From contig JAYWIR010000048.1 in NCBI GenBank assembly GCA_036172245.1, positions 1,302,001-1,335,139 on the forward strand: a stretch of DNA of 33,139 nucleotides, written 5' to 3'. The notes beneath the pieces are model-generated. The model was not told the origin of the DNA. It searched no databases and saw only the letters and a list, made by a program, of their open reading frames with translations. Origin of the DNA: Raillietiella orientalis (Eukaryota). The position numbers and the translations under genes are program-made. Shown in pieces: positions 2,191-33,139 of the stretch (positions within the stretch are counted from its first letter, which is position 1; each line of letters starts with the position of its first letter).

Positions 2191-3914
2191 ATGCTTCTTC
2201 GTTTTCTGTTGCTGCTGAGAGAGAATAAGAAAGCACTGCCCCGCAAGATAGGAAGCATCAGCTATTAATGAAACACCCAGAATCGTTTCTCGATTAAATG
2301 GTCGAGGCTTGGTGTGCTTTTGCTCTCTCCAAGCATTCGAGAAAAAGAAAGATCTCTTGAACGGGTCAATAGGAAACAACACGCACAGTGTTCATTCCGA
2401 GTCGACGGAGTTTGTCGACAGGCGGCACCATCAGCACGAGAATGGGCACTCAACGGAGGGTGGAAACGTTCGTGCGTGCGAAATGGAAACTTCGCGACCA
2501 AACGAAAAAAACAGACAAACGTGGCATTATGTAAAGCGCCTATTCGTTTCATGTTATCGCCCCAAACACTTTGCATGCTCCTTCAATTGGGACTGCTGAC
2601 ATCACTGCTTTGCTGTCATGGGTGACGTGCCCGAAGTCTGGCGGGAAACAGTAAAATAACTCCTAACTCACCTACCTACTTCTCCTACTGCTTCTCTCGG
2701 ATTCCAATCGGAAGGGGATGCGGCCGTGGAAGCCGATGGGACTCTGGAAGGACAGACACAGGTCGTGATGGGTCCAAGTGGAGGTGTCGTCCGGCGCTCG
2801 TGAACGCTGCCGCCCTCAGCGTTCCAGCTCACACCTGTTGGGTGATGTGTTTGCACAAATGCGTGCTGGTCCGATAAGATCTCATCCACGAATCGACCCA
2901 CGCCACATCCCTGAGAGCAACAAGCAGCATTTTCGTTTCCCCTCTGTCCCAAACAGTTACTCTGCTTTGGATTCCTCGAGGACGCGAACAGCAAGCAACT
3001 GCGCCACGTCCATCGTATGATTGCCAGTTGTTGCAGGATTCAGGCTCCAGGCAAAGGATACTTTCCACTTCCGCGCCCTTCAACTTACCCTCGTCAGCAA
3101 GGCGAGGTCCGCAACGCTCTCACTGACGACGCAAAGATGAGCGTAGGTCGCACATGCAGTGTTGCACTCTTTGAATGCCTCGATCTGTCGAAGATATTCC
3201 GAGAGGGGATCAGGTAGTGTGAGCACCGTACGGTGGTCAGGTTTCTTGCAACCACATGGAGAAATTCTAGCTGGATTCTGGAAAGGAGAAGAAAGTTGCT
3301 CGTAAGCACTTGTTCTAACGTTTTCGGAACTTCCAGAAGGCATCAGCAAACGATGGTTCTCAGAAAATACCGAGCTCTTACCGAATGCTTTCACCACCAG
3401 CAGCGCCTGCCGCCGAACTTCCTCTGAGATGCTCCTCGACCGGATGTGGAACACTGCCAAAGATCCCAACGAATTTGGTCAAAGTCCAGCAGCCGAACCG
3501 CGTCCTTCTTTCAAGAGAGATACGATGAATCAAAATTGCAAAAATTTCAAACACAGTTTCCCATTCCGGAAACCCGAGCTGCTACCCACATGTTTCGCAC
3601 TTGCTGGTGACGGAGGGAAGCCAAGGAATGCTGGGGCGAACAACACCACAGCAACACGAACTTGTCCTCGAACCCAACTGTTCGAAAACGTTTATGCGAA
3701 TGCGTGGGTTGGGCAACTTCTAGAACCACGGATGTACACGTTCTCACTTTTCTGGAAGTAGAAGGCAAGCACTCAGAGGAAATCACCGAAGCTCTCGGAC
3801 TCTTTCTGTCCAGGTTAAGTTGCCGTTGTTGGAGCAGCCTCCAGCCTCATAGCTGCATTTTCAAATCGTCTTAAAATGAATTCCAATGCCTTGAAAAATG
3901 TTTTCCAGTTTTTC

Positions 3915-10053: not shown

Positions 10054-11640
10054 TTTTTCACCCGGGTGCGCCAGGTATGGATTTTTTTCCTTCTTTACAA
10101 AGGAAGCGCAAGCGACGTGCCAAGACGCAGACCAGAAAAATTCACCTCGGCGGCATAAGGATAAGGGGCAAGAAAATAAAACAAAAGCAACAAAAATGTA
10201 AATAAGAACACCTCTGGATAGATTGTAAAGGGATGGTCACCGGTGGACACAGAGACGATCTTCTCATTGTGCCTGCGAAGAAGACTTCGTCTTTCACGTC
10301 ATTCTTCCTGTAGTGGTAGGTTGCACAGCCGCTGGAGGAACAGTAACCAGGGTCTCATTTTCGGAGGATGCAAGGCTGTGGCTGAACACGAATCCTTGTG
10401 CGTTCCGTCAGATACTCTTACCCTTCCCAAATCTTCCTCACTGAAAACCACTTTCCCCCTAGGAGCTTTGAGGTGCCCTCCCCGGTCCGGTCCAAGCGAT
10501 TTTGTCGCGCTGAAGTATTTCATTTCGGAGTCGCGCGAGGCTATTTGATGCTCCAGAGCCCGTAGGGGCCTTTTCGATGGGATGTTTCTCCCTTCGGCAG
10601 AGCCAGCTCCCAGAAGGTCGCGTGCAAGGAGAAATATATCAGTAGTGTCGTTATTTGCCACCAGCCGCTTTCCTCCCTAGGCATCGTCTTGGTCAATTCT
10701 GCTCGCATTGCACGTCGTGCGCTTTCCTCCTCTGTCTCCTTCGCGGTACCATTTTCTTCGTATGCAATGCTCTTTCTGGAAGGCTTCTGTCTTTCTGAAT
10801 TTGGTGCGTCATTTTCTTCAGGCAGTTCACCTCCCAAAGTTTGTTTGGCTCCCAGGTAAACCGGAAACATCCATTGCATCCTCCACTTTAGGCAATTTGA
10901 GCGCCACTACCTTCTTTGTGCCCGCGTTCCTTTTTCGGAAAATTGTGCCTGTCGTGCACCCTTTTCACTTGAAATAGTTTGCCACGTTGCCTGGAATTGC
11001 CAGATTATCGCAGATTAAGCGCAGCGAGTGCGCCTCATGTTTGCTTTCGGTGACCTTGCAGAGTGTAGAACTTTAGGCCTAACCACATACCGCATCTCTT
11101 CGATTTCGTCGTTGATGCATAGTTCTTGTAAGATGAGCGACCTATCTTATGCACGAATGCGCGTTTCTTCCAGCCCACTGAATGTGGTGAAAGGCTAGTA
11201 TAGCACCTGTTTTGCGCCAAACAGCATAAACAGCACCACACTTTGATAGTTCGGTCAACACCGCATCCTTGTGCACATCGGCAGCAACCCCCCTTGAATG
11301 GATGAACACAGATTGGCCCTTGGGGATAGGAAGGGTCACATCCCTGCTTCCTACACACATTGTCGACTTTAGTAGGCGGTGGTCCAAGACTACATTTGTA
11401 CTTCATAGCTCTCCCCAGCTGCTTGCAGGCGTTACCAGCACTCGTCGAGCGCACTCGGAAACGTTGAATTTCCTGAAGGAACGGAATAAAAAAAAATTTC
11501 ATATCAGATCTACTTGCATTTAAGGGCAACTGTTGCACCCATGGAAAAAAAAAGTCCTGGTCAGCAAGCTCATGGTTTTATCCCTGCTCGTTGAGGCAAC
11601 CACTGCCTCTGGAGAGGTCTCCGATTCGACTTTTGCCACA
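10054..11640 (-). mobile_element. Copy B: LINE-family element with decayed ORF1 joined directly to the family 3' UTR; no ORF2 recognisable
   Basis: HRLLKSTMCVGSRDVTLPIPKGQSVFIHSRGVAADVHKDAVLTELSKCGAVYAVWRK (11142-11387) aligns to the ORF1 RRM-like region. ELCINDEIEEMRYVVRPKF precedes degenerate knuckles. The 3' UTR has a T-rich tract, GGTCTGCGT (10125-10133) and the terminal hairpin (10060-10076). The 5' boundary is uncertain. Confidence 0.75.
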
Positions 11641-15459: not shown

Positions 15460-16200
15460 CTTCTCCTGCTTTTTTGTATGCAATCTGGAATTGCATCTGC
15501 GAAATTAAATCATAAGTGCAAGCATGCTTGAGATTCTCTATCACTTGAAAACAACCAAAGTTATGTGTCTCTGTAAAGTATTGAGCCCGCCTTCTCAGAA
15601 TTGCAAACTTGAGATGAGCCAGACGTTTGAGCCGTACGTGCACTACTCTCAGAAGTGTGCGTGGATATAAACTTCAGGATGCGTCTCTGGAGACGTAATC
15701 TCTTCCGTTCCGAGCCAAGTTTGAAGACAACACTCGGGAAATGACGACTGCTGAGCCAGGCTTCTGCAGCAGGCACCTCAGTTCTTGCAATGATATGCTC
15801 CCAATTCGAGTTTCCACTTGAAACGTGCGAGCTTTCCTGCAGATCATGCAGGTAAAACATCGCAAGCATGTCTGCTCGAGCTTCCATACTTCCCACAGAT
15901 GATGCATCGTAGGCGTCTTCACGGTGAATTGAAAGAATTCTCGCAACGAATGTGTTTCTGGAGGAAGTAGTTGGGAAAAATTTTTGATGGATCACGACGG
16001 CATAAACCCACTCCTTCTCACCAAGTTATTGCCATCTCGGGATTCCAGGGGCTATGGCAAGTTTTCGTGCGCCCTGCGTACACCACTCAGGTGAGCAGAG
16101 GCAATCTGTTAGAGATTCTTCTTTCCGATGACTTCTCTGAAGTATCTCCCAATGTCTTCGTTGCTCTGTTTTTGACCCTCTTGTCTCCAGTCACCTGCAC
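15460..16200 (-). pseudogene. Decayed copy 4 of the unidentified family
   Basis: ASAHL, FVARILS, QRRILK..VHVRL..LAHLKFAI and SQMQFQI are colinear with copies 1-3. Confidence 0.3.
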
Positions 16201-16884
16201 CATAAACATTCTCGGCAGCTACTCTCCTCTCCGAACCTTCCTGATTCACCATCCCATTGCGACCTTCCATACAACTATCTCCATTTATCACATTTCTTGA
16301 ATCTGGCTAATCCAATGCACGCAACGTGGAAACGAAACACATCATTTCCTCTCCCTTCACTCATAGAAGCACAAATCTCAAAATTCAACCCACATGGTTT
16401 CATCATCACCACCACGGTAAAAATTCTCGCCTTGGCATTCTAAAATGGTCCCATCATCCTCATACCCTAATTTCCACTTGTTGCCATGGAAGTAACTGTA
16501 GGACTTATTCAAGCTTACAGCTTTCCTACCCAAACCTCTTCATGTACAAAAATGCGTTTGATATCAATACACCAACTGTTTATTTTTCATCCTCGCAACC
16601 AGAACCAGGCCACCGGTAACTTCACTTACTTTCTCAGCACCACCGATAACCCTTTCACCAATCTTCACATAGACATGAACACACTCCGCTGCAAAGTCAA
16701 AATTTCAGGTAGATTTATCCAGGAGAACAGGAGTCTGAATTTCTGGGTATCCTTGCAAAAATAAAAGATGCATTTTACCTTGCAATGCTCAAATCCATTC
16801 TGTAAAGGAAACTTTCATTTATTTCTTTCTTTTGAGCATTCTTCAATGTCAACTTTAGGGTAAAGTAAGAATTCCTTATTTTCT

Positions 16885-17640
16885 AGGGGAGATTTCGACG
16901 GTGGCGAAGCGATGTTCTTTGGGCACACCACTTTGGTATGACCCTTCTCGCCACAAGTTGGGCATAGTGCGTCCAGGCATCTCTTTTTGAGATGCCCGAA
17001 CGTCTTACAAATTCCGCAAAACTTTGGCTTACCCACTCACCCGACGTCGACGAACTCGCCTCCGAGCTGGAGATTGTGGGGAAGTTCAAAACCCTTGCGC
17101 AAGGTCACGCGTTTAGCGACACGCCCACTGAAAGCGGCCCTGACCCCGAAAAGGTTGGGCTTCCTCCACTACACATGAATCACGGCGCATTTTTCAATTT
17201 CGCTGCGAATGGCCGTTTCGTCCATTCGCACCGTTCTTCCCGTTGCATGGATCAGGATCGATCGGTCCACCGTGTGGGGGAGGATGTTGCGTCCCTCCAT
17301 CTGTAGGGACGTGAACAGCGGTCTGAGAGTTAGAGCTGCTTCTTTGCAGGTTAACTCGGCGCAGTGGCCACAGCTGCGCACGGAGAGGCACGCAATCTCC
17401 TCTTCCTTAATGCCCATCCTAAGGATGGCATTCTCGAATTTTCGCATCCGGAGAGGCGAATACAAATTACCTACCCTGTGAAGGAGGGCGGGATTATAGC
17501 CCTCCCGGATGTAGGCAACAACTTCGACGGTGACATCCAACGTTTCTGCAGCTGCACCGCCCCACGCTCCATGCCCTAGCCGAGGAGGCGGCAGACTATT
17601 GGGTTGTGGGGCGTGACCCCACCTCCGCATACTTGGATGA
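16885..17640 (-). pseudogene. Copy X: ORF1 fragment (RRM-like domain plus two CCHC knuckles), 3'-truncated
   Basis: AYIREGYNPALLHRVGNLYS...GKPKFCGICKTFGHLKKRCLDALCPTCGEKGHTKVVCPK; one stop and a frameshift. Confidence 0.92.
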
Positions 17641-17666
17641 CGTGATTTTACAGCATCCCAGCGGAA

Positions 17667-18268
17667 ATTTATCACCCGGATATGAAGGAGCATTTCTTTT
17701 TCACAATTTTTTAATAGAAAAAAAATTTCACAGTGAGGTCTTGTAGTTATAAATATGTGCAGGAAGAACACGTGGTTCCGCCTATCTTGACACACTTGCC
17801 GCTGCCAATTCGCAGACTCCTGAGATCCCCTCTGGAGGCAATGGGGAAGGAAAAACCTCAAAGGAAAACAGAAAAACCAAACAAAAACCAATAGGAGAGA
17901 AATGTTTTAGGAAAAGGGAGGGCTGGGAAGGGATCATCGTTCGCCCCGAGTGGTCCTCTGCATCCTGTTTAGGATGCGGACAAGCGCCGGAAGTAATGCT
18001 CTCAGCCCGGACCATAGGGAAGCTTTCTCAATGTTGAGTCGCCCAGAAAATGGCGTTTCTGCTCTTATGTCATCTCCTGGACACAGCCCATTTTCCCAAG
18101 ATCCCACGTATGCAGCAGAAAACTGCCATACACGCGGCTGCTGGCAGGACGTCCTGCATGAAGAGGCGACGGAAAATGTCCTTCGGGTCGCCCCCGGGAA
18201 TGTTCAAGATCGCTGACAGTCGATCCCACATGGGTCGAAGGGCGACACACTCGATGAAGAGGTGGAGG
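17667..18268 (-). mobile_element. Copy Y: ORF2 C-terminus plus 3' UTR
   Basis: LHLFIECVALRPMWDRLSAILNIPGGDPKDIFRRLFMQD..FCCIRGI aligns with the ORF2 end of copy C; stop near 17934; T-rich tract, GTCTGCG (17811-17817) and CCGGGTGATAAA terminus. Confidence 0.85.
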
Positions 18269-18480
18269 GGAGGACGGCCTGCCAGCAGAATTTTTTCAAT
18301 GTTTTGCGACAGAGCTCGCCCCCCTGGTAAAGAAACTCACCTTGCTAATCCGCGAAATGGCAGACGTCCCCGCCTCGTTTCGTTCGGCAAAGGTGCGTCT
18401 CCTCCCTAAGGGAGGAGACCTTCGGAGCATGAGCAACTGGCGGCCGATTACCGTTATAAACGCGGACGCCAAGTTGCTGG
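18267..18480 (+). mobile_element. Copy Z: short RT N-terminal fragment
   Basis: GEDGLPAEFFQCFATELAPLVKKLTLLIREMADVPASFRSAKVRLLPKGGDLRSMSNWRPITVINADAKLL matches RT motifs 0-2 of copy F. Confidence 0.92.
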
Positions 18481-20567
18481 TTGCAACCTGGTCACGCCGG
18501 GGCGTTTATTATAAATTCTCTATAATTCGTGGTACGAGGCCCCACTACTGCCAACTCAACAGGACCTGCCGGGTCGCCGGTACGCAGACCGGCGCGACTC
18601 TCCTCGGCAGCGAAAGGGGATGGGGGAAAAAACAAAAAGAAAAATAAAACATAGAAAACAAAAAGATTTGGGAGGGTTGGGGAGGGATCACTGACCACTG
18701 GGAGGAGGGTCCATCCTTTGCAGGATGCCCTCAAGGTCCGTCCGTATGGTTCCCAGGTGGGGCCATCTGGTTGCAATCCGCAAATAGCGAACTGCAAGTT
18801 CGATGGCATCCCTGTCGTGGCTCGGACTTCTTGTGTCACTCCAGCACGTCACAATCCCGCGTACGCAGCAAAGTGCAGCCAGGGCAGCGGCTGTTCGCAG
18901 GGCATCCTGCACGAACAGAAGCCGAAAAACGTCTCTGGGCTGGCTGCCATCCTGAATCCGTAGGGAGGCACGAAGACGTTCCCACAGGGGTCGGAAGGCA
19001 GCACAATCAACAAGGAGGTGGGAAAAAGTTTCCCGCTCCCCACACCTGATGCAGGCAGGATCTACTCGATCCCTGGTCCAGTGGTGGCGGCGTGCGTTGC
19101 ATGGTAGACCCCAATGCAACAACAGAAGCGCCGAATCCTGCCACTTCAGGGGGGGGATCCTCGAACCAATTAATACCGAGGGCCACTTCAGGTCATCCGG
19201 CTGGATGCCGAGCAGCTCGCCTCATCTCGTAAGTCCTCTCGGCTGGACACTAGGGGTAGTGGCGTCCGCCAGTTCCCCCATGGACCAGCCGCTCATCAAC
19301 TTCTCCTTGCCTGCGATGCGGCAGGACACTTGGCACCTAGGCTTGCGGCTGCTGGAGAACGCCGTAGCTAGGGGCGTGGTCTCGGCCCACGTGCTTCTCG
19401 CGGGACACTGGAGTATCTTCCGCAGAGTGCAGAGGGAATAGGCGCCGCGTCGCAGGCAGTTCCACATCTCTTCATTCTTTTCATTAATCTTCGCCCACGT
19501 GCCAGCTGTCTCCTCCAGCCATGCGGAGGAGTTGGCGGGGCTGCATACCATCCAGCCGTTTTCCTTAGCCAGAGTTGCCATGCGTCCCAGGAGAAGTCCG
19601 CATCTCTTGATCTTCGAGCCACGGCACAGAAGATAAGACGCGAGACCCTCCGTTCCGGATACACGGCTGGCAAGGAGGCGGGCCGGAACGCACCAAGGGG
19701 TGCTCCATAACTTCGCTGCGATGGCAAGGGAGCGCCATCGCAGCTAAATCTTTACTCGCTCCAACGTCAAGAGGCCGATACCGCCATCCCGACGTGGAGC
19801 ACGCAAGTCCTTCAACAAGACTCGGGGCCTCCTTCTTCCCCAAAGGGCAATTCTAAGGAGGTCCTTCGTCCGTTTCTTCAACTCTCTGGAGACGGGGCAA
19901 ACAAAAAGCAGGGGGCGGAGGATGGGAGCCGCGAACGCGTTCCATACCGCGGCCCGTTCCGGAAGGAGACACTTGTCTTCCAGGAACGGGCCGATCGCCG
20001 TTTCCACTTTCTGGAGGCAGCCGGACCACGCTTCCGCAGGAGACAAGTCCCCCAACGAAACACCAAGGTACTTCAAGCACTTCGCCGTGGGGATCCCCAA
20101 GCAGACTCAGTTCTGCTGCCCTGCCCACGCCGCACCAACTGGCATCACGGACGACTTCGCCCTGTTCACCGTAAGTCCGGTTCCCCGACGCAGCAGGTCG
20201 AAGAACTCCCCGACCGCCTTCGCCGGGGTGGACATCGGCAACAAGAGCAAAAGATCGTCGGCGTACGATGCAACGACGGGCGTGCCAGGGCACAAGCTTG
20301 GCAAGGGCGCCAAAGTCACCCTGTACGCTTTCAGCACCAACTCAAAGTAGGTGCTAAAGAGCAGGGGACTGAGGCTGTCGCCCTGCCGTATGCCCCGCCG
20401 TACCGGCACGCCGTACGCCATTTGACCTCTGAAAGAGATATTGATTAGCGCGCTGCGCCAGCTAGAGCGCAGGTAGGTCAGTAGGGAGGGAGGGAAGCCC
20501 ATGCGTCCCAGGAACTCCAGCAAGAGATCCTGGTCCACGCAGTCGACCGCCTTGTGCGCTCTAGGGC
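18481..20567 (-). mobile_element. Copy C: 3' half of ORF2 (RT from the HKA.D motif, C-terminal CCHC) plus complete 3' UTR; pseudogenised
   Basis: HKAVDCVDQ, RRGIRQGDSLSPLLF, YADD, KYLGV, CIRCGERETFSHLLVDC; stop at 18688; internal stops and frameshifts; terminal hairpin at 18487-18501. Confidence 0.95.
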
Positions 20568-21710
20568 GGACGTGTTTTCTTGGTGCTCCTTGTGCCAGGA
20601 AGTCTTCCCCAGAGCAAGCGTCGTGTGGTTCGGTGGTCGATAAGGCAGCGATGCCTGACGCGACCACCAGGGATGGCAAGAAAGCAGCGGCAACGTCGCT
20701 CCCAGAGGCGATGGAGGTGGGGGCATCCGCCCCCACAGAATCGGTCCCCGCTGCAGCGCGGGCGTGGAGCGCCGTTGTGTGGGCGCCATCGCCTGCAGTC
20801 GCGGCGAAATTGTCGGCCTATGTAGAGGAGGGGTACAACCCCTCATTGTTCTACAAGGTAGGCAATCTCTATTCTTTATAGAGCGCGCGCGCCGTCTCGA
20901 AGGGCATGCGCGCTCTCGATGTGAAAGAGGAGGAGCTCAGCGCTATGACCATCCGCAGCGGGGGTCAGTACGTTGAGGTCATCTGCAAACAAGCAGAGCT
21001 GGCCCAACGACTGCTTAAAACCCCCGTGGTGATGGGGACGCGCAGGCTCCTCCCTATTACGGCGGACCGCAGCATGATGGTCCACCTGTTAGGTGTTACC
21101 GCGCGGATGCGCAAGGAACAGGTTCGCGCCGCGTTGGAGGAATACGGAACGGTCCACGCGCAGTGGACGAAAGTTAGTCCTTTCAAGGACTACACGGGGC
21201 TGCAACACGGCCTCACTGCTGCGCGCGTGACCGTTCGGGAGGGCTGCACTCTTTCCCACAAACTGGTGGTCGAAGGCGAAACCGTCGACCTCTGGTATGT
21301 GGGGAAGCCGAAATACTGTGGCTTCTGCAATACGTCGGGCCACCTCAAAAAGAGGTGTCCCAATGTGCAGTGCCAAGTATGCGGAACCATGGGACACACG
21401 AAGGAGGTGTGCCCAAAAGAAGCAGTGCGGGTGGTTTCCAAGAGAAACCTTAAAAAACGCGCCCGGCTTCTGCAGAAAAGGCTGGCGGCGAAAGCTGCCG
21501 CGAAAGCTGTGCCACCCGCGCCCAAGGCCCAGGCCGCACCCAAGACCCCGGCGAACAACGCTGAGCAAGTCGTGGGAACTAGCCAGGAGCCTGGGTGGCA
21601 GGTGGCTACGGCCAAAGAATCAAAGAAGGAGAGGAGGATCGAGAAAAAGCTCGCGTACCGCCAGAAAAAACAGCAGGCAAGCGAGCAGATAAAAGAAGGC
21701 AGCGTTGTCG
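20565..21710 (+). mobile_element. Copy D: 5' UTR plus N-terminal half of ORF1 (ATG 20651, one premature TAG at 20879-20881)
   Basis: ORFs 20501-20881 and 20906-21859 share a frame; RRM-like region and CGFCNTSGHLKKRC / CQVCGTMGHTKEVC knuckles; interrupted at about 21710 by the 3' end of copy E. Confidence 0.93.
20567..20578 (+). promoter_or_regulatory. 5'-end motif CGGACGTGTTTT of copy D (candidate internal promoter element)
   Basis: The same motif opens copy F at 24169; the function is inferred. Confidence 0.45.
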
Positions 21711-21741
21711 TTTATTACCCGGTTGCGCCGGGACGTTTATT
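21711..21741 (-). other. LINE 3'-terminal signal: AATAAA followed by hairpin CCCGG-CGCAA-CCGGG and TAATAAA
   Basis: Perfect 5-bp stem; homologous termini at 18487-18510, 10054-10076 and (decayed) 17667-17690. Confidence 0.7.
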
Positions 21742-24160
21742 CATAATATCAACTGGGAACTGTGTTCCCAGGCAAGGGGAACAGAAAATGGGGAGTAGAT
21801 TTTCCAAAACGCAGACCGGGCACACTGAGAGTTCGGAACGGGAGAGGGGGGCACAATAAATAAATAAATTGGGTGGGAGGACGGGGACAGGGGTATACTG
21901 TCTAACCGTTCCTATTCTCAGAACCGGCGGTGAATGCCGCCGATCTCCGTCCTCACTTCTGCTCCAAGATGTGGCCACCCGGCAGCCAATTGCAGGTTGC
22001 AGGCTGCGGTGTCGGGGACCGACGTTGGGACTGCTCGCATCTGCAATACGTGGCGGACCCTGACAATGGCGCGGACGCAGCAGATGATTGAGACGATCGC
22101 TCCAAGAGAAAGACCGCCACGCGTGTAGAAGCGGCGCATCCAATCGAGTGCGGTGTGTCCGGGGTGCAGGAGCGCTGAAGACAGCCGCTGCCACAGATCC
22201 TGGAGGGCACCGCACTCAAACAGCAAATGCGGAAGCGATTCCACCGCTCCGCATTGGGCACAGTTCGGGGACGCAACTCCCCCGGAAATCAGGTGCGCCC
22301 GCTGGTTGCAGTACAAACCCCAATGCACCAGCAGAAAAGCGTCCTGTTTCCACCGAAGAGGGAAGAGAGTCGCGTTCAAACACGCAGAAGGGACCACAAG
22401 TTCATCGGTGGGCACCCCGAGGAGCTCACTCCACCGGAGAAGTCCCTTGGCACGAAGGCGAAGTGTGGCAGCGTCTGCCACTTCGCAAGTCTGCCAGCCG
22501 CCCAGCAGTCGGGTTTCGCCTGCGATTTCGCAAGGGATCTCCCACCTCGCCGGCAGGTCACTGTCATCTCGCACCATCAGTGCACACAGTGCTTCGGCGA
22601 GTGGCATAGCGGCTAGGCGTGTCCACTGGTCCTGGTCTTCCAGCACCTCCCCCACTGGACAGTATGGGGAAATGTTAACGCAACGGAGTTCCAAACGGGA
22701 CACATCCTGTTGCTCTGCCCAGGACGATAAGGCTTCCTGCCTCCAGGCATTGATGCTCGTCGGCTGGCAGGAGATCCACGCATGCTTTTCCAGAAGCGAG
22801 GCGAGCTGCTTCAGAGGGAAGCCGAATCCTCTCTGGATGCGCTCCGTGCGCAGATGCAACGAACGTAGTCCGTCGCCACCCGTGCAGCGCCGCAGCAGCA
22901 GCCGCGCTGGAGCACACCAGGGAGTAGTCCATAGCTGCGCACAAAGTGCCAGCATGCGGAACTGCACTAGCAGTCCGATCCGCTCCAGCGTCAGGATGCC
23001 CAATCGTGCATCCCGCCGAGGAGCCGCCAAGTCCTTCAGGCGTATCCTGGACCTCGCCGGTCCCCACAGGGCGTTCCGCAACAGGCGTTGCGCCCGGCGC
23101 TTAGCCGAGTAAGGAGGAGGACAAAGAAAAAAGAGGGGACGGAGGAGGGGGGCAACGAAAATGTTCCACACGAAGGCCCGTTCCGACAGGAGAAACCTGC
23201 CGCCCTGGAACGGGCCCAGAGCAGTCTCTGCCTTGTGAAGGCAGTCCGACCACGCTTCTGCTAAACAGAAGGCGCCCAAGGGAACGCCGAGGTACTTCAA
23301 GCACCTGCCCGTGGGGATCCCCAGGCGGATCCAGTCGGACTGCCCCTCCCACGTAGAGCCAACCGGTACAACGGTTGATTTCGTCCTGTTGACGCTCAGG
23401 CCCGCTCCTCGACGAATGAGCTCGAAGAAGTCCTCGAGCCTGGACGCCGGGGTGGACATGGGCAGCAGCAGGAGAAGGTCGTCAGCATAGGCGGCCACGG
23501 CCGGTGTTCCCGGGCAGTAGCTCGGCAGGTTGGCCAGCGTAAGCCTGTACGCCCTCAGCACCATCTCGAAGAAGATGCTGAAGAGCAGGGGGCTTAAGCT
23601 GTCTCCCTGCCTGATACCCCGCCGTATGGAAATGCCGTACACGTGGCGCCCGCTGAAAGAGATACAGCATAAAGCGTGGCGTTAGCAGGAGCGCAAGTAG
23701 GCGATGAGGTGCGTCGGTAGGCCTACGCGTCCCAGAAGCTCCAGAAGGAGGTCCTGGTTTACGCTATCGAACGCTTTGCAGAGATCGACGGCGACCGCTT
23801 AGGCTCCCGGCGTTCCATCGTGCCTCGAACACCGCCGCTTACCTTTGGCAGCGGCGATTTCGGCTGCCTTGCTCTGCTGCGCCACGCGCTGCTGCAACTC
23901 GAACCATGTTCGCGCGAAAAAGAGATTCGCGTCCATGGACCGCCCCGGAACAGCATACGTCTGCTCCGGACTTACCAAGGACTCTGCGATTCTCCCCAGG
24001 CGCGCGACCCATAGCTTGGAGAACAACTTGATGTCCGAATTCACCAATGTGATGGGACGCCGGTTGCTGAGGTGGCGCAAATCACCGCCTTTCGGTAGGA
24101 GCGGCACCTTTGCTGAGCGGAAAGAAGCGGGAACATCTCCCGTCTCACGCATCAGCGACG
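21711..24160 (-). mobile_element. Copy E: RT through C-terminal CCHC of ORF2 plus complete 3' UTR; pseudogenised
   Basis: LMRETGDVPASF..RPITLVNSDIK..DLCKAFD, then 574-aa ORF 21918-23642 with QGDSLSPLLF, YADD, KYLGV and CAQCGAVESLPHLLFEC; stops near 23680 and 23799. Confidence 0.96.
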
Positions 24161-24168
24161 GTCGCGTA

Positions 24169-24181
24169 CGGACGTGCTTTT
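24169..24181 (+). promoter_or_regulatory. 5'-end motif CGGACGTGCTTTT of copy F (candidate internal promoter element)
   Basis: Shared with the divergent copy D, within about 10 nt of the element boundary. Confidence 0.45.
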
Positions 24182-24242
24182 GCGTCGCTCCGCGGTAGAT
24201 TGGCTCTTGTGTGTTTTTGTTCTGCTGTGCTTCTGTGCTGCA

Positions 24243-26323
24243 ATGGGAGCAAGGAAGAACATCAGCCGCAAGAAGGGAACGCCACCTGCTCCTGAGATGG
24301 CTGCTTCGGCTGCTAGCAAAGAGCCTCTGTCCTCGCCGACGGCGAGGACATTCGCTCAGGTCGCTGCCCTCGCGGCTACGATGGGACCTTCGCCCGACAG
24401 CCCTGAGCTTCAGGCGTATGTAGCAAATGGCTACACGCCTGCACTCAGATATAAGGTAAGTGTCCTCATGCCTGAGCGGGTTGGGCGCGAGTTTGGCCAG
24501 GAAGTCCAACGGATTGGAGTTCAAAAAGGCCAACTGGAGTCCATCATGCTCAAGAGTGGGTTCGGCTAAGTGGAGGTGTCCAGTAAGGACGCTCTCCTTA
24601 CGCAGCGTTTGCTGCACACGCCGCTGCTCATTCGTGGGCAGGAAATACTGCCTGTCACAACGGACCAGTCGTTCGTTGTCCGGCTCAGTGGAGTGTGTAA
24701 GGGCCTTTCGGACCTCCAGGTCGTGGAGGCCCTTGAAAAATACGCTACCGTCCACGCGCTTTGGAGGCTGCCAAACCCTGCTGAAGGGTTCGAAGACCAC
24801 CACAGCGGGCTCGCGCAAGTGCGAGTGACGATGACGGATCGCCGTGCAATGCCCACGCGACTGCAGGTGGATGGAATGACCGTCCGCCTGTGGTTTGCCG
24901 GGCAAACGCGTGTATGCGCGGAATGCGGGCAGGAGGGTCACTGCATTACGAAGTGTCCCTCGGCCACTTGTCGTTCCTGCCACGAGCACGGGCACACTAA
25001 AGGAACGTGCCCGGAGCTCCTCTTAAAAAACGAAAAGCGCAGGAACGAATCGCGTTCCGCATCGCGGAATAATCGCCGCGAATCGAGAGAAAGAAACATC
25101 AAAGCTCCGAAAAGCGTTGCGAAAACCGCGACCACGCACGTGCAGAAAACTGTTTCTCGCCCCCACAAAGAAGGGGTGAAAAAAAAAAAAAAAACCCGTC
25201 GCGGCAAAGCCTCCGGCTATCGACCCGAAGGAAGCTCGCGAAGAATGCGACCTTTCTACGAGACCTCACAGCCAATTGTTGAATGCAGGAGACATTGTGC
25301 CGATGGTCAAAAAGCCTCCTACTGTCGGCATCACGACCGCGAAGCCTCGTACCAAGGCCTCCACGAGCGGCGCGGAATGCGGTCGTTCGCCCGATACGGG
25401 AAAAACGCGCCCGCGGGCAAAGAACACCGCGCCGTCTGAAGCTACCGCGGCCAAGGTGCCCCAGGCGCCGAGTGCCGCGAAGAAACAGACGGCAAACCCG
25501 CAGTCCTCGCGCGCGGACGCAGCGCCTACTGCGGCCAAGGAAGAAACTGCTAGGGCGAGCACAACCGCTACAGCAGTGTCCCCAACGGTCCCAACGGCAA
25601 CGCGCGAACCCTCCGATCTGGAAGAGGCAGCGCCTCTCGCGATCGCTAAAAAAGTTGCTTACGCCTGCGTGGAGGCAGCACTCCAAGAGGCAGCCAAGGC
25701 AACGCCTCTTACATCCGTGGAAACAGCGCCATCTCAGGATGGCAAAGATAACTGCGACGCGAAGGAAGACGGATGGATGCAGGTGAGAAAGATCATTAGA
25801 AAGAAACCATCAAGGTCTTCGCAGCTCTGTGTGAAGGTGAGTGGGCGAAAGAAGCCCGCGAAACCTTTCCAGAAAAAGATTGCGATTCTTTCCTCCTGCG
25901 CAGTCGTCCTCGCGGATGGAGCGGGAAGCTGCTGCTGCGGCTAAAAGGACGGAAGTCCCAGCCGCAGTTGCATAAAGCTCTAGGAAACAGGCAGACAACG
26001 ATTTCCCTAATTCCGGGAAACAGCAGCAGCGCCTGGCAAGCCCTCGACTGTCGGATTCTGATCCAGAGTCCGACAGAAAGAGCACACAGCGCGACAACCG
26101 CCCGAAACCGCGCAATCGCCTCCCGAAGACCCGCTAGCGCGTGGTTGCCGAGGAGGAACTGCTGCTGGGGAGCAAAGAGGAGGGAAAGGACCTCACCTCT
26201 GAACTACCGGCAACAAACAGTGGGGCTTCGAATGGAGATTTTTAGTCTCCGAGATCGACCGCTCTGTCTCGTGACCACTCGCCGGACAAGGCGAGAAATC
26301 CGTGCTCACCTTCCCAGCCTTAA
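24243..26323 (+). pseudogene. ORF1 of copy F (nucleic-acid-binding protein), disrupted
   Basis: ATG 24243; TAA at 24567; CAECGQEGHCITKC and CRSCHEHGHTKGTC; frameshift at the A16 run 25179-25194 plus later lesions; C-terminus DHSPDKARNPCSPSQP* aligns with copy G DFSPDGARSTPSCTQQ*. Confidence 0.9.
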
Positions 26324-29085
26324 TGCAGGAAGTCACCTCTTCTCGTCGATTCAGCATAGCCTGTTGGAACGTCAATGGGCTGCGCAGGGACGGAAAGAGG
26401 CGCGGCGTGTTAGGCCCCCTGCAACATTTCGAGTTAACGATCCTTCAGGAGATGCAGTACATCTCCGATGCGGAGGTAGCGGAAATCGAACAGCGCGCGG
26501 GTGGCACCTTGTACTGGCGAAAAGGTACTGCACAATCGTGCGGAGTCGGTTTTCTCGTCAATAGTAGGATGGCAAGAGCGGTGCGCAGCGTTCGATTCGA
26601 CCAGGTAGGGCGAATGGGCCAACTTGTACTCAAGTGGTCAGATTCAATCGACCTCGTCGTAACGAACGTCTACGCGCCGAGCGGCTTTCATCGGCGTGTC
26701 GAAAGAATCGAGTTCTTCGACGTGCTGGAGAGCCAATGGCTGAGAAACTCCGGAGCAAGAGTGGCGCATCTCGTCGCAGGGGACTTCAACGTCCACCTGC
26801 TTTCCGACGAGACGCGTTCCCTGGCGGAACGGTCGCGGGTGGAAGAGGCATGCGCGTCGGTGCATGCGCGTAACTTGGAAGCCGGCGAGCCTGGACTGGA
26901 AAGGTGCGTGGATCACCTCTACCTCGATGAACACCTACTCTCCCGAGTGGGAAGGAGAGGCAGGGTGCCGTCCACGTTATCGCACCATGATAGGCTGGAG
27001 TTCGAGCTACTCCCGCCTGGCAAGGGACCTCCAAACAATGTTAGGAGGATGCCGGCGGATTGGCTGAGTCATCCGAAAGCAGCGGAGCATCTTTGCCAGT
27101 TCCTTCGCGGTTTTGCCATCCGGGAACTCAAAGACTGGGACCATCTTAAGAGATCGGTTCGCGAGTTTTGCGACCGGTTCCTCCTGCACCTGCTACCACG
27201 CAAATTCGGGGAAGGCGTGGCCAATAGCAGAGCATTTCTGCAGGCGCGCACCTTCTCGAGACGTGCGGAAGTCCGGCAACTCGCAGAGTACAAGGCGAGG
27301 GCCGAGCGCCACGTCTGGCAGTCTGGAGCGGCTATTCTGCTCGACGACCAAGGCCGGGAATGCACGGCTCCTGCCAAAGTGCGGCGAGCACTAAAGCGTC
27401 ACTTCTCCTTGCTCTACGCTAATTCCCCGACGGAAAGAGTCCTCTCCGAACTACTTTTGCCGCGGGCTGCACATGGCATCGGCGAGGAGGAACGCGATCG
27501 TCTCGACGAGCCCTTCACATTGGAGGAAGTTTCTTCCGCCATCGCAGGACTCAAGAGACGGAAGACGCCAGGTGAGGACGGACTGCCCGCGGAGTTCTAT
27601 CACAGCTTCGCGGCGGAACTCGCCCCACTGGTGCTTAGAATCTCGACGCTGATGAGGGTGACAGGCGATGTCCCTTCTTCCTTCCGCTCAGCGAGGGTGC
27701 GTCTCCTTCCGAAAGGAGAAGATCTGCGCCAACTCAACAGCTGGCGTCCGATCACATTAGTGAATACGGACGTCAAGTTGTTTTCGAAGCTGTGGGTCAC
27801 GCGCTTAGGGAAAGTCGCGGAGTCCGTGGTAAGCCCGGAGCAGTCTTACGCTGTACCGGGTAGATCCATGGATGCGAACCTTCTTTTCGCGCGCACCTGG
27901 TGGCAGCTTCAAGAGCGCGTTGCGGCGGATAGCCGAACAGCGGCAAGACCTTCTGCCGACTGCGTGAGCCAGTGCGGACGGATGGAAGAAAGGCCGGGAG
28001 CCTTAGCACTAGCAGTAGATTTGCACAAAGCATTCGACTGCGTAAACCAGGAACTCCTCTTGGAGCTCCTGGAGCGTCTTGGGCTTCCGAATCATCTTCT
28101 CCTGTATTTGCGCTCCTGCTGGCGCCACGCGATTATCAACTTGTATTTCAGTGGCTCCCGCGTGTACGGAGTGGCCGTGCGCAGAGTCATCAGACAGGGC
28201 GACAGCTTAAGCCCGTTGCTCTTCAGCATCTACTTTGAGTTAGTGCTAAAAGCGTACAGGCTGACGCTGGCCGTCCTGCCCAGCGCCTGTCCGTGCACTC
28301 CGTCCGCGGCAGCATACGCCGACGACCTTCTGCTTCTGTTGCCCATGTCTACTCCGCCGGACTCGGTCCAAGACTTCTTCGAGCTGATCCGTCGTGTAGC
28401 GGACATGAGCGTTAACAGGGCGAAGTGCTTCGTCGTGCCGGTGGGTGCCTCGTGGGAGGGACAAACCGACTGGATCCGCCTGGGGATCCCCACGGTCAGG
28501 TACTTCAAGTACCTAGGCGTACCGTTGGGCGACTTCTGCTCGTCTGAATCGTGGTCGGCCTGTCTTCAGAAGGCAGAGATGGCTCTAGGCCCGTTCCTGG
28601 AAGGCAAGTTCGTCTTGCCGGAAAGGGCGTGCATATGGAACACTTTTCTTGCCCCCCGCCTCCGCCCCTTATTTTTTGTTTGCCCGCCTCCCTATGTGGT
28701 TAAACTCCGGCCGCAGCGTCTCCTACGTAAGGTCTTGTGGGGCGCTGCGCGATCCAGGGTTCGCCTCAAAGATTTGGTGGCGCCATGCCAGGACGCAGGC
28801 CTGGGCATCCTGACCATCCAGAAGATTGGACTGCAAGTGCAGTTCCGGCTTCTATCCCTATGTGGGAAATTGTGGTCTAGTCACTGGTGTGCTCCGGCTC
28901 GCCATATTCTCCAGCGATGTGTCGGCAGTGCAGGATTGCTTTCGTTGCTGCCGCGCAACCTTCGCCGGAGAACTGGATTTGGCTACCCACTGAGGCACTT
29001 GTCCTCGTTGCTGTTAGCTCATTCCTGGATTTCCTGCCGCCCCTCCAATTGGAATGCTTGGCAGCAGGAAGCTCTGGAGCACCGG
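26323..29085 (+). CDS. ORF2 of copy F: APE endonuclease plus reverse transcriptase; open for about 920 codons but 3'-truncated and probably inactive
   Basis: EN motifs WNVNG, LQE, NVYAP, GDFN, DH, and SHH (SDH in copies G and H). RT motifs PGEDG, WRPI, DLHKAFD, RQGDSLSPLLF, YADD (28315-28326), KYLGV. Homology stops after WQQEAL. Confidence 0.93.
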
Positions 29086-29087
29086 AC

Positions 29088-31255
29088 GTCCACTTTGACT
29101 ACGCGGTGTACTTCATCTGCAGCCGAGCATTCCTGGCCAGCGTCATTGAGCAGACAAGCCGCTCCAGACTGCCAAACCTGGCGCTCGGCTCTGGCCTTGT
29201 ACTCCGCCAGACGCCGGACGTCCGGGCATCGGGAGAAGGTACGCGCCTGCAGATAGAATCTGCTGTTCGCGACACCCTCCCCGAAGCCGCTGGGAAGCAG
29301 GTGCAAGGGGAATCGGCAGCAGAACTCGCGGACCGATTTTTTCAGATCGTATCAGTCCTCGAGTTCACGGATGGCGAAGCCCCGGAGGTGTTGGCGAAGA
29401 TACTCCGCCGTTTCCGAATTGCTAATCCAGTCGGCCGGCAACCTCCAGACATTCATAGGAGGCCCTTTGCCAGGCGGGAGGAGCTCGAACTCCAGTCTCG
29501 GATGATCCGAAATCGCGGACAGCAGGCGCCCTCTCCGACCTACTCGTGAGAGCAGGTGTTCATCGAGGAACGCATGGTCCGGCGATCTCTCCATCCCGGG
29601 CTCACCAGCAAGCAAGTTTTGCACGCGCACGGACGCGCATACCTCGCTCACCAGTTGCTTCTCCCTCAAGCGGCATCTCTCCTCTGTTAGCAGGTGGACG
29701 TTGAAGTCTCCTGCAAGGAGGTGCGCCACGTTAGGGCCAGAGTCAGCGAGCCAGCGGCTGCGCAGGCCACCCAGGAATGCAAGTCGCTGAACGTAATGCC
29801 GGCCGCCGCTCGGCGCGTAGATGTTCGTAACGACCAGGTCGATCGATTCGGACCACTTGAGGACAAGTTGGCCCACACGACCTTCCTCGTCGAAACAAAC
29901 GTTCCGCACCGCCTCCGCCACCCTGCCTCGGACGAGGAACGCGACTCCGCACGTGTGCGCGGAGCCTTGCCGCCTGTGTACCGTCCCGCCCGCGCGCTCT
30001 TCCAGATCCGATGCCTGCCGTACGGAGATGCTATGTATCTCCTGCAGCAGCACCAGATCGATGCGCGCAAAGCGTTGGCTACCGTCCGCCTTTTGTCAGC
30101 ATCACGCAGCCCGTTGACATTCCAACAGGCCACGCTGACGCGAAGAGCGGACGCGAGTCCACGCATCACTGCTGCGTACATGACGGCGTGCTCCTCGCCC
30201 CGTCCGGCGAGAAGTCAGCTGGTAGGAGAGCGCATTGGGAAGCGGAATCGCTCCCGTTCGCCGCCACATCGCGCCCAGCTGAGTCCTGGGAGCCGAGGAT
30301 GATCGCCTCGGTCTCCGTGCAGGAGCCGGAACCGCCTCCGGCAACAGGCTCGTGCTTTCGCACTTTAGCCCGGCGCGCTACCGGCTTACCCCGGGATGCG
30401 CGCTCCATTTGTTTGCACTCGGACTCCACCTCGGAATCCGGGTGCCTGGCGCGAGACTGGCGTTTTGCCAGTCTCTTTTTGTTTCGGCAGGTGGAGACTT
30501 GCCCTGCCCGCGCGGGGGTCGTCGCAGTCGCCAACGCAGCTTCCGGAGCTTTGGCTTCCGCAGCCGCCCTCTCGCGCGAAGCGACGGAGACAGAGCACGC
30601 AGCCGTAGTGCGTACCTGGGTACGCACCTTCTTCGGCGTGCTTCTCTTTTGCCTCCCACCCACCTTAAGGATGGGGAATATTGAAGAGTCAACCTTCTTC
30701 TTCCCCTTTGTGGGCGTCCTGGAGACGCGAGTCCAGCCCGCGTCGGGGACGCCCTCCTGGGAGGCCGACGCCTCCCTCAATTGTTTGGCCGGAGATGCCG
30801 GCTCACGTTTCTCGCTCGCGGCGGGAGACGGCTCCGTCCCCGTTACGCACTGCACCTGCTCCTTAGCCGATGCGGGCGAAACGGCGGTCATTGCCGTCGT
30901 CCCGCGAGGCGCTATTGCAGCCTTCGCTGCTCGTGCCTTCGGCGTGGAAGACGTGATCTCCACCGCCGTAGGAGGAGACTGCCGTTCAGAGGCAGCTCCG
31001 GGGGTACCCGCGCACGGTTTCCTGTGTGCTCCGCTGGACGCGCAAGCGGACGCGGACGGTTCAGCAGCCTTGATTGAGTGCGTGCCCGCACTCTTAGGCT
31101 GCTTCGAAGGGGGCGATTTACCCCCAGGGCGACGTGGCATCTTTCCCGTCTGCGCGGCTGTCTGGGATGGTGGCTTCCCTGAAGCAACCGCGCCCTTTCT
31201 CGCGGGACCGCCACTCAAAGATGCCCCGCCTTTCGCGCTTGATTTCACACTACTA
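29088..31255 (-). mobile_element. Copy G: ORF1 C-terminal half plus ORF2 endonuclease and linker; frameshifted
   Basis: Ala/Ser/Lys-rich ORF1 tail ending at 30166; ORF2 MRGLASALRVSVACWNVNG from 30166; LQE, NIYAP, GDFN, SDH; ends at LLNDAGQECSAADEVHRVVK. Confidence 0.94.
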
Positions 31256-33139
31256 TAAAAAAAATAAAAGAAAAATATGGAGAGTAGGGGACAGATGTCT
31301 TTGGTAAGTCTGTTCCTTCCTTTCAAAACCGGCGATGGATGCCGGCGATCTCTCTCCTTACGCCCTGTGGCAGATGGGCCCACTAAGCAGCCGACGACAT
31401 GCTTGTGCTGGCTAATCCGATGGGCTGACGGAGGATGGCCAGCTTCTCTATCTCTCGATGGGCCTTGTCGATGGCGCGGGTGCAACACACGGTTGCAACG
31501 ACAGCACCCAATGACAGGCCGCCTGGCGTGAAGAAGCGGCGCATCAAGTCCCTCGCGGTGTCCCCCTGGTGCAAAAGAGCTGAGGCCAGCCTCCGCCAGA
31601 GTCCTGGAAGGGCACCGCAGTCCAGGAGCAGGTGCGGGAGCGTTTCCACTTCCCCGCACCGCTTACAGTTTGGGGAGACGACTCCCCCGGAAACACGGTT
31701 CGTCAGCTGGTTGGAGTGAAAACCCCAATGCACCAGCATGACGACGTCCTGCTTCCACGAAAGGGGGAACACAGAAGTGTTCAAGCAGGAGGAAGGAACC
31801 ACAAGTTCTTCGGGGGGCACACTCAAGTGTTCGCTCCACCGAAGGAGTCCCTTCGGAACGTGGCGAGGTGTGGCGGCGTCCGCCAGCTCGCAAGTCTTTC
31901 AGCCGCCAATAGGTCGCGTTGTTCCTGCGATGGGGCAGGCGACCTCTCATCTCGCCGGTTCGCAACTGTCATCTCTTGCCCTGAGGGCTGACAGTGCGTC
32001 GGCGAGGGGGGTGACGGCCAGGCGGGTCCACTTCTCCTGGCTGTTGCACACCTCATCCACCGTGCAGTACGGAGAGAGGTGAGCGCAACGGAGTTCCAAT
32101 AGGGAAACATCCTGGTGCTTTGCCCAGCCATGCAACGGTTCCTGCCGCCAGGCTTCAAAGTTCGTTGGGCGGCAGGAGATCCATTCCTGGGCTTCCAGGA
32201 GCCGGTACAGCGGTTTCAAGGGGAAACCGAAGCTTCTCGTGGCGCGCTCCGTGTGCGGCAGTAGCGACAGAAGTCCATCGTTGCCTGTGCAGCGCCGCAG
32301 AAGCAGGCGCGCGGGAGCGCACCACGGAGTGGACCAAAGGTTGGCGCACAGGGCCAACATCCGAAGCTGCACCTGCAGCTCGATTCTCTCCAGCGTCAGG
32401 ATGCCTAAGCCAGCATCCCGACGCGGAGCCGCCAAGTCTTTAAGGCGGATCCTGGACCTCGCAGGTCCCCACAGAGCGTTCCTCAACAGGCTGTGCGCCT
32501 GGAGCTTAGCCGAGTAGGGGGGCGGGCAAACGAAAAGCTGGAGGCGCAAGAGGGGGGCAACGGAGGTGTTCCATATCGTGGCCCGCTCCGTCAGGACGAA
32601 CCTGCCATGGTCGCAGAACTCCTGGATCGACCGCTTGAAGCGGTCCCAGTCCTGAAGTGTCTGCATCCTGAAGCTCCAAATAAACGCGCGGAGGTGTTCC
32701 GCCGCGTCGGGAAACTTCAGCCAGTACCCTGGCAGACGCCACGCTGACGAGGGGGGGACCTTGTCGCGCGGACGCACTTCGAACATGATCCGACCATGGT
32801 CCGACAGCTCGGATGGTACCTTGCCGCGCCTGCCCACCCGAGAGCATAGGTGCTGATCAATTTACACGTGATCGATGCTGCTTTCCATGGCCGTGTACCC
32901 GGCCAACAAGTTGCGCGTGTTCATTTCTGCGTACAACTCGTTGACGCGGTCGTTCAGTGAATCCGGCGCACGTGAAAGCAGGCGCAGGTTGAAATCACCT
33001 GCGATCAGGTGCGCTTTGCGAACTCCTGCATCGGTCAGCCAATCGCGTATAAGGGCAAGGTAGAATTCCCTTCTTGCCTTCGCCCTCAACGCGTTGTTTT
33101 CGCTAGGAGCGTATAGGTTGGTGACGACCAGGTCGATAG
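31256..33139 (-). mobile_element. Copy H: ORF2 with endonuclease joined to the post-RT region (RT deleted) and a partial 3' UTR; runs off the window
   Basis: NLYAP, GDFN, IDH, SDH, then QEFCD|HGRFVLTERA junction at about 32608, CKRCGEVETLPHLLLDC, and the IHRRF* end at 31323 as in copy E. Confidence 0.94.

Follow-up and report, generated by a model that had tools for sequence, protein, structure and literature searches.

How does a run of LINE pieces come to alternate strand after strand with no host DNA between them? The question is raised by positions 17667-31255 of the window (the whole 33,139-nucleotide stretch of Raillietiella orientalis DNA analysed here), where seven adjoining pieces, Y, Z, C, D, E, F and G, lie edge to edge (Table 1). 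An earlier note on this DNA had taken them for seven copies in strict alternation. All seven indeed abut without host DNA, but E and G belong to a single element that F has divided in two, and the pieces represent six copies. An uninterrupted copy of this element is present at locus L235 on contig C26, where it is 91.6% identical to window positions 20309-24158 and 96.3% identical to 29095-31246. The alternation holds within the nest but stops outside it, as X(-) lies left of Y(-) and H(-) lies right of G(-). X probably represents the 5' region of Y-family elements, judging from X-like sequence that follows Y-family 3' ends at L185 and L201. At their left edges Y, C and E have natural 3' ends and D and F have natural 5' ends, and the right edges fall within coding sequence. 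This asymmetry was described earlier and is borne out, and the same natural ends are found again at many other loci. The right end of the window is the contig end, and the missing right halves would lie beyond it. The nest pieces are only 65-75% identical to one another and thus belong to different families rather than being copies of one element.

Table 1. Pieces of the LINE nest and the features flanking it
Feature	Position	Strand	Description
X	16831..17666	-	ORF1 fragment with CCHC knuckles; head-to-tail with Y; outside the finding
Y	17667..~18265	-	3' UTR and ORF2 C-terminus; natural 3' end, hairpin decayed
Z	~18266..18480	+	ORF2 piece, aa ~433-503; left edge a microhomology joint (truncation or deletion), right edge the C target site
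C	18481..~20556	-	3' half: RT to zf-RVT, 3' UTR, hairpin, family tail; antisense at Z ORF2 aa ~502; itself interrupted at aa 586 by D
D	~20557..21711	+	5' end and ORF1; antisense at K-A-F/V-D-C codons (ORF2 aa 586) of C; interrupted in ORF1 by E
E	21712..24157	-	3' half of the E/G element; antisense in D ORF1; interrupted by F
F left target duplication	24148..24157	+	10 bp; right copy gone with the deletion, present at sister loci
F	24158..29097	+	5' end, broken ORF1, ORF2 from 26275; frame open through APE endonuclease and RT as far as the break; 3' part (last ~1.05 kb) deleted
G	29095..31246	-	5' half of E's element: endonuclease and part of ORF1; both edges deletion joints
H	31247..33139	-	3' part of another family, without last ~150 nt; reaches contig end
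H internal joint (H1/H2)	32606/32607		deletion joins H to an endonuclease piece

The nest is very probably the work of several families in one small clade of L1-group LINEs, and every family has a single base of its own in the coding sequence of related LINEs as its target. C enters ORF2 at aa ~502, D at aa 586, E the ORF1 of a D-type element and F the E element at aa ~457-461, all opposite to the host, and every new copy supplies targets for the other families. Since new copies carry looped targets and insertion is opposite to the host, successive insertions would give alternating strands. Later deletions at short microhomologies took away the 3' end of F and the 5' end of E.

The joints Z|C, C|D, D|E and E|F are family-specific insertion sites, and all four are found throughout the genome, accompanied by empty alleles, target duplications and tandem copies. 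Of the 28 F 3' ends (30 pattern matches minus 2 that were E), 22 lie at one base of an E-type host, 5 belong to F-F tandems and 1 lies in another place. The F site, at aa ~457-461 of E, is empty at L235, and at L004 F occupies the homologous base in a host just 72% like E. D is found at aa 586 at 26 of 30 5' ends (25 placed by blastx and 1 by sequence), the others being two tandem copies, one doubled 5' end and one deletion; at its 3' ends, 6/12 have no antisense host match at the site. Twenty-five of the 26 visible E 5' ends are at the E site, in at least three host types and with variable junction bases. C-tailed 3' ends lie at aa ~502 in 11 of 16 cases, in D-like and other hosts. The target duplication of E (9 bp) is seen at both ends in L235; those of F (10 bp), D (~12-14 bp) and C (7-8 bp) are inferred from junctions at different loci. 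Flanks of one type exceed 20%, which is Kojima's threshold for target specificity, for F, D, E and C but not for the closest relatives of Y, whose flanks are scattered. Among other Y-related 3' ends, 24/28 have no common flank and 4/28, from a more distant subgroup, are at one site. No consensus is common to the target sites, and the clade, at 65-75% nucleotide identity, has ten or more of them. Followed from family to family, the targets form loops (F→E→D→F, C↔D and D↔E), and a stack can therefore grow on itself without hitting host genes. The earlier idea of one self-targeting element with a strand-biased nick gives way to families that each have a single-base target in other families. Its series of copies, each antisense in the previous one, stands for C, D, E and F, as seen from duplications and from empty sites at sister loci, but G did not arrive by an insertion of its own and Y|Z does not recur as a site.

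The elements are L1-group APE-type LINEs, as defined by an APE endonuclease, a reverse transcriptase (RT) with a C-terminal Cys/His motif, a separate ORF1 and target duplication. The N-terminal endonuclease (PF03372) has invariant E38, Y112, D149, N151, D192 and H217, and its predicted structure has an APE fold with human L1-EN as the best match (Z 25.4, rmsd 2.4 Å, 214 aligned). PF00078 is found in F, E and C, and PF13966 in C is just below the cut-off; the separate ORF1 with CCHC knuckles was read from sequence. In place of poly(A), the 3' ends carry AATAAA, a small hairpin (5 bp) and a short tail particular to the family, and the targets are GC-rich coding motifs; the poly(A) and TTTT/AA of mammalian L1 are lacking. 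The region of the specificity loop is some 20 residues shorter in this endonuclease, with 38-40 aa between GDFN and the next catalytic Asp in 28/28 distinct copies versus 45-68 aa in 28 database relatives. Neither the 36 relatives (21-31% identity) nor the members of their clusters include a named Tx1 reference. On the side of the host, whose being an animal is a trait of the Tx1 clade, the Pfam hits obtained (MINDY and CAP_N) point to a eukaryote and nothing narrower.

In the putative insertion reaction, ORF2p would nick the host coding strand at the family's site, reverse transcription would be primed on RNA ending in AATAAA, the hairpin and the family tail, and a second nick 7-14 nt away would lead to the target duplication. 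Orientation would be fixed per family because each site lies on one strand. By analogy with Tx1L and R1Bm, site specificity most likely lies in the endonuclease, although the segment with the known specificity loop is short here. The site could instead be chosen partly by RNA, with the 3' tail pairing with the nicked target, or with an R-loop (the host transcript or an incoming related RNA on the template strand) exposing the host coding strand to a loosely specific nuclease, so that antisense landing is the default. This alternative is rather unlikely, though it is the strongest of the rivals. It draws on the lack of poly(A), on the shortened GDFN-Asp segment being modelled as coil, and on the first 4-5 bases beyond the D tail, which are identical in 12/12 3' ends, off-site ones included; these constant bases may, however, be the core site of the nuclease. 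The prevalence of antisense insertion across unrelated sites also fits it. Against it, R-loops fail to account for single-base precision, E and K target ORF1 regions without detected homology to themselves, and one family, s7, inserts in sense at a single base, in 8 loci of D and one further host. In support of the family-site model, 17 of a position-ordered sample of 70 3' ends adjoin an antisense LINE, 5 a sense LINE and 48 neither (p=0.017, or p=0.041 minus two look-alike pairs). The antisense excess anticipated in the earlier note is thus present, but antisense landing is a bias and not a rule.

The recurrence of junctions would have another meaning if a few chance nestings had been amplified as composites, by segmental duplication or co-retrotransposition, and the junctions were inherited rather than repeatedly hit. 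The single assembly from which all loci come does contain identical duplicates (L054/55, L063/64, L081/82 and L092/93), the host-X-Y-Z block has a duplicate at 94-99.6% identity, and the junction of family K in F (window-equivalent 25634, read from one side) is repeated in at least 4 loci. F hosts are mostly of one family, and the test of F against its hosts (Mantel rho -0.09, p=0.68; 8/19 loci with at least 600 bp of host) is weak and underpowered, with star-like trees. For D, composite amplification is refuted. The hosts of D find their best match, at 74-100%, in C, E, F, D or a fifth family. They fall into 17 clusters at 85%, the D copies themselves being 89-100% alike, and the use of one codon in hosts of many families indicates independent insertions. 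C, like E, uses several host types. The E site in D ORF1 is filled at 13/30 D loci and empty at 17/30, and filled and empty alleles are interleaved on the D tree, requiring 7 changes, of which at least 3 are forced by starred branches. The starred clades of the E and D trees do not match. E and D identities are correlated among the filled loci (rho 0.50), for which shared age or some co-amplification could be the cause. Tandem copies, moreover, sandwich a remnant of the target. Taken as the general explanation, amplification of composites is improbable, and repeated insertion at family-specific sites is preferred.

A chromatin domain in which LINEs pile up, such as a Zepp-like centromere, with orientation filtered later by, for example, direct-repeat loss, is more doubtful still. 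The nests are clustered, fill small contigs and sit at contig ends, deletions are frequent, and Zepp nested clusters are described at probable centromeres in the part of PMC3446292 drawn on here. However, such a domain gives no single-base family-specific sites and is excluded as the sole cause; targeting to a domain of this kind was the other option in the earlier note. LINE nests also occupy at least two places per contig (2.36-2.60 and 3.58-3.59 Mb on C5; 2.46-2.50 and 4.39-4.43 Mb on C13), several clusters are present on C26, and 2366 3'-end matches are dispersed along large contigs. An assembly or amplification chimera, or inversion by twin priming, is very improbable: the window is at a contig end and F|G, G|H and H1|H2 are known from this locus only, but the four joints turn up again at many loci, 5-12% diverged and with target duplications, Y|Z is also found in a diverged duplicate, and adjacent pieces, 65-75% identical, cover in part the same element coordinates (E and F overlap by 1433 bp at 73% identity), which means that they do not derive from one RNA.

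The remaining joints, Y|Z, F|G and G|H, arose by deletion or truncation. The deletion at 29095-29097, with 3 nt of microhomology, removed ~1.3 kb consisting of the F 3' end and ~250 bp of E. Placing the end of F|G at the site of some other family was rejected, as that site is ~20 nt off and empty. A former position of H in the endonuclease of D is not supported, since the D sequence there is unlike the H target. The leftward decay proposed for the nest is a weak gradient by stop counts in the best single frame. F ORF2 is open over 2823 nt, but the element's own ORF1 is broken, and Z, farther left, has 0 stops in 215 nt; E has 2 in 2238, G ORF2 3 in 1118, D ORF1 1 in 1082 and C 3 in 1842. No RIP-like or CpG mutation signature was seen, and the only tandem repeat within the nest is one short weak array. 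Among sequencing runs, no RNA run was listed as carrying the words; one DNA run (0.14 of words present) gave contigs mostly 90-95% alike, the longest listed being <500 bp, and none of the contigs listed crosses a window joint. An opposite-strand joint at 24158/27626 in this run may be read-through of an empty site.

Sequence-specific LINEs are known in rDNA, snRNA genes, microsatellites and DNA transposons. Families that target each other's coding motifs in loops would be a natural experiment on how the single-base specificity of an APE endonuclease changes; with ten or more sites among close relatives, such change is testable by domain swaps. They would also bear on how large LINE-only islands nucleate and grow without gene damage, and alternating LINE stacks at contig ends are not necessarily assembly chimeras.

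The closest known systems, by features and not by RT phylogeny, are the TE-targeting LINEs of the Tx1 clade and Zepp; the comparisons below extend to the portions of the papers cited. Tx1L inserts in Tx1D, Tx1-Mar in Mariner-N4_AMi, and Tx1-8_Crp and Tx1-4_AMi in LTR elements (PMC4494074, PMC1950540). The present families resemble them in the APE endonuclease and RT, in preferred positions within another TE (PMC4494074, PMC1950540), in an orientation fixed per site and in tandem copies that enclose the target duplication. Tx1-clade targets are DNA transposons, LTR elements, snRNA genes and microsatellites, whereas here they are coding motifs of sister LINEs; the ten or more sites, closed target loops and short specificity-loop segment also set these families apart. 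Clusters of the L1-type elements Zepp (Coccomyxa C-169) and ZeppL (Chlamydomonas) likewise grow by insertion into existing copies (PMC3446292, PMC8226300). Zepp forms one cluster per chromosome from one element in tandem, mostly 5'-truncated copies (PMC3446292, PMC8226300), in contrast to the many families, many intact 5' ends, mostly opposite strands and several clusters per contig seen here. Human L1/Alu nesting shares positional hotspots and orientation bias of TE-into-TE insertion, but its hotspots account for a minority of the insertions, which a promiscuous nuclease makes, and L1 enters L1 ~2:1 in sense (PMC2836564), whereas here a family has most of its copies at a single base and mostly antisense. 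Human LINE-1 ORF2p (PDB 8sxt, 1vyb) is the best solved match by sequence (E 2e-37) and endonuclease fold (Z 25), with ~20% identity in the endonuclease; ORF1 with CCHC knuckles, no poly(A) tail and strict targets distinguish the present elements. A literature search confined to the main text of mostly open-access papers, Repbase Reports not among them, listed no report of mutually targeting LINE families; the target tables that supplement PMC4494074 could be relevant here.

A broader and tentative picture is of a LINE community living only in one another. Targets would be looped in rock-paper-scissors fashion (F→E→D→F), with each insertion destroying a rival copy and supplying sites. A shortened APE endonuclease and a hairpin end devoid of poly(A) would go with a single-base specificity that lies outside the known βB6-βB5 loop, in other loops or in RNA-DNA pairing, and is easily reprogrammed. 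The mainly antisense landing would in addition produce cross-family silencing RNA. The fold-back arms of the nest share 71-73% identity, and their longest perfect matches span 16-30 bp, so a hairpin would make poor double-stranded RNA, contrary to what had been proposed for a transcribed nest. Judged from the layout, read-through transcription would yield RNA antisense to the host family.

The nest is real, and four of its joints are family-specific targets. By self-comparison and translated mapping, the window (G000:C48:1302001-1335139) holds only LINE pieces, with no non-LINE host DNA, from the start of X to its right edge, which is the contig end. The pieces are 65-75% identical to one another in self-comparison and therefore belong to separate families. 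An earlier note had described seven abutting copies (Y to G, 17667..31255), each inserted antisense into the previous one, and the two methods confirmed its coordinates and its list of natural element ends. Strand alternation holds inside Y-G and stops at both borders (X-Y and G-H are each same-strand); the reported decay gradient is present but weak.

LINE pieces and other features of the window, of contig C48 and of other loci
Feature	Position	Strand	Loci
LINE pieces X, Y, Z, C, D, E, F, G, H, in order	16831 to window end	-, -, +, -, +, -, +, -, -
s7 sense site	~177 nt past E site in D-type ORF1		L047, L055, L065, L069, L071, L211, L212, L226, L234
Isolated ORF1 fragment	269-1119	-
Isolated ORF1 fragment	11178-11387	-
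Host exon	3080-3478	-
Host exon in L011	6765-7145	-	L011
Inverted duplicate of host-X-Y-Z block, then a different nest	G000:C48:30001-51885		L233, L234, L174

The ORF2 of F encodes an APE endonuclease and a reverse transcriptase; among solved structures it is matched best by human L1 ORF2p (E 2e-37). At the 3' terminus every family carries AATAAA, then a hairpin of 5 bp (CCCGG/CCGGG), then a short tail peculiar to the family, and poly(A) is absent; the 5' ends have a short motif in common. One pattern describing this 3' end has 2366 genome matches scattered along large contigs, and its reversed control has 0.

Each of the four joints recurs across the genome. Among 28 F copies (from 30 pattern matches), 22 are joined antisense to an E-type host at a single base, 5 are tandem F-F copies with a target remnant between them, and 1 lies elsewhere. 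In 26/30 loci D begins antisense where the host encodes ORF2 aa 586, the others being tandem (2), with a doubled 5' end (1) or a deletion (1); the host resumes at aa 588 after 6 of 12 D 3' ends. Of 30 D loci, 13 carry E at its site in D ORF1 and 17 have that site empty, and the E 5' end, visible in 26/29 other G-family loci, lies at this site in 25 and in a tandem in 1. For C, 11/16 3' ends bearing the C tail lie antisense at aa ~502. Other recurrent antisense sites are aa ~71, ~80, ~288, ~312, ~366 and ~1080, and F ORF1. Counts are slightly inflated by identical or near-identical locus pairs (L054/L055, L063/L064, L081/L082, L092/L093, L123/L129), possibly haplotigs or recent duplications.

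K, a more distant LINE family with a different ORF1, adjoins F ORF1 antisense at one base, window-equivalent 25634, where many F matches start; the junction was read in four loci (L007-L010). A family with a distinct tail (L016, L020, L028, L133, L143, L159, L161) has similar downstream flanks that match none of the LINE references; these flanks may be a further fixed target, within some repeat outside that reference set. In a Y subgroup with an (AT)n tail (L191, L198, L201, L202), insertion is antisense at one fixed position near ORF2 aa 366, and the closest relatives of Y (L175-L190) lie at scattered positions; target specificity would thus have been gained or lost within the Y group.

E and G are one element. 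Locus L235 on contig C26 consists of the 5' portion of D, a full-length E whose F site is empty, and the rest of D, and is 91.6% identical to window 20309-24158 and 96.3% to 29095-31246. In sister loci a complete F is followed by a 10-bp duplication, and E then continues. About 1.3 kb was lost from the window at F|G, with a microhomology of 3 nt. G|H likewise arose by deletion: 29/29 other G-family loci continue differently past this position, and the final ~150 nt of H are missing. Y|Z is a microhomology joint, found besides the window only in the duplicate at the opposite end of C48.

Repeated joints could also arise by amplification of one composite. For D this is clearly not the case, and its copies are independent insertions: the copies themselves are 89-100% alike, while their hosts form 17 clusters at 85%, with best matches to C, E, F, D or a fifth family. 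Deletions in some flanks lower the median host identity of 65% (a 26-locus set with L072, not L046). Mapping the filled state of the E site onto the D tree takes 7 changes, of which starred branches force 3; the starred clades of E do not agree with those of D, hosts are of at least three types, and junction bases vary; against independence, pairwise identities of E and D are correlated (rho 0.50). C hosts include D-like copies (85-95%) and another family (90-93%). For F, independence is indicated by an empty site, by tandem copies and by one host that resembles E at only 72%; the F-versus-host tree test had no power.

The inverted duplicate on C48 matches window 15800-18480 at 99.6% in host DNA and at 96.8, 95.5 and 94.4% in X, Y and Z, a LINE divergence about 10 times that of the flank; no RIP or CpG mutation signature was found in the LINE DNA of this block. 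Past the C site it carries five bases resembling empty host sequence, then a deletion joint. These five bases, thin evidence, suggest that C may have entered only one of the two duplicates.

The families target one another. F enters E, and E enters D; D enters F (hosts 94% identical; L051, L059), E (94%; L070), C (in the window; 90% in L071) and D-like copies (88%; L056), and C enters D (93-95%; L111, L122, L124, L125). These assignments close the loops F→E→D→F, C↔D and D↔E, so nesting can continue without limit, the strand alternating with each insertion, which accounts for the pattern first noticed.

The first 70 listed exact 3'-end matches on contigs C1-C5 (from a total of 2366, by a pattern that does not catch D and Y) adjoin an antisense LINE in 17 cases and a sense one in 5, with no abutting match in a small reference library in 48 (p=0.017; 0.041 without two look-alike pairs). 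All fetched loci, a nest-enriched sample, gave 105 antisense, 22 sense and 90 unassigned 3' ends (n=217), and 42, 21 and 4 5' ends (n=67). Tandem copies at an element's 5' end make up 10/22 sense 3' ends. The family s7 inserts in the sense direction at one base, in 8 D loci and one other host; antisense insertion is thus a strong bias, not a law.

In the standard TPRT model, antisense insertion means a first nick on the host's coding strand. No consensus is common to the target sites, so specificity differs from family to family. The endonuclease most likely sets it, by analogy with Tx1L and R1Bm, where it is the usual determinant (PMC1950540). The F endonuclease model (pLDDT 89) superimposes on L1-EN with Z 25.4 and rmsd 2.4 A over 214 residues. 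An oddity new here is a short stretch from GDFN to the next catalytic Asp, 38-40 residues in 28/28 distinct copies versus 45-68 in 28 database relatives, from which the D-x-W-R motif of relatives is missing. The model has a coil in place of the L1-EN βB6-βB5 hairpin, gap placement resting on an uncertain alignment. Given the shortened stretch and the coil, specificity may come from other loops or from RNA-DNA pairing, the latter being the main rival explanation. Fold-back arms within the window share only 71-73% identity, their perfect stretches measuring 16-30 bp, and antisense read-through RNA against the host family would be a more plausible RNA product than fold-back.

Tx1L is a transposon-targeting LINE inserting in Tx1D, and Tx1-Mar occupies a Mariner element, in an orientation that depends on the site and with tandem copies (PMC4494074); transposons are generally listed among LINE targets (PMC5035012, PMC4640811), self-nesting is known for Zepp (PMC3446292, PMC8226300), and human L1-into-L1 nesting is sense-biased (PMC2836564). 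A literature search of incomplete coverage found no report of loops in which several LINE families target each other. New from the window are the E/G identity, the counts with empty sites, the closed loops, a counter-example that targets in sense, and the shortening of the endonuclease.

Isolated ORF1 fragments from the LINE clade of the nest also occur in the part of the window that carries genes. The host exons in the window and in locus L011 have Pfam matches to CAP_N and MINDY deubiquitinase, and ordinary genes lie ~13 kb from the nest start.
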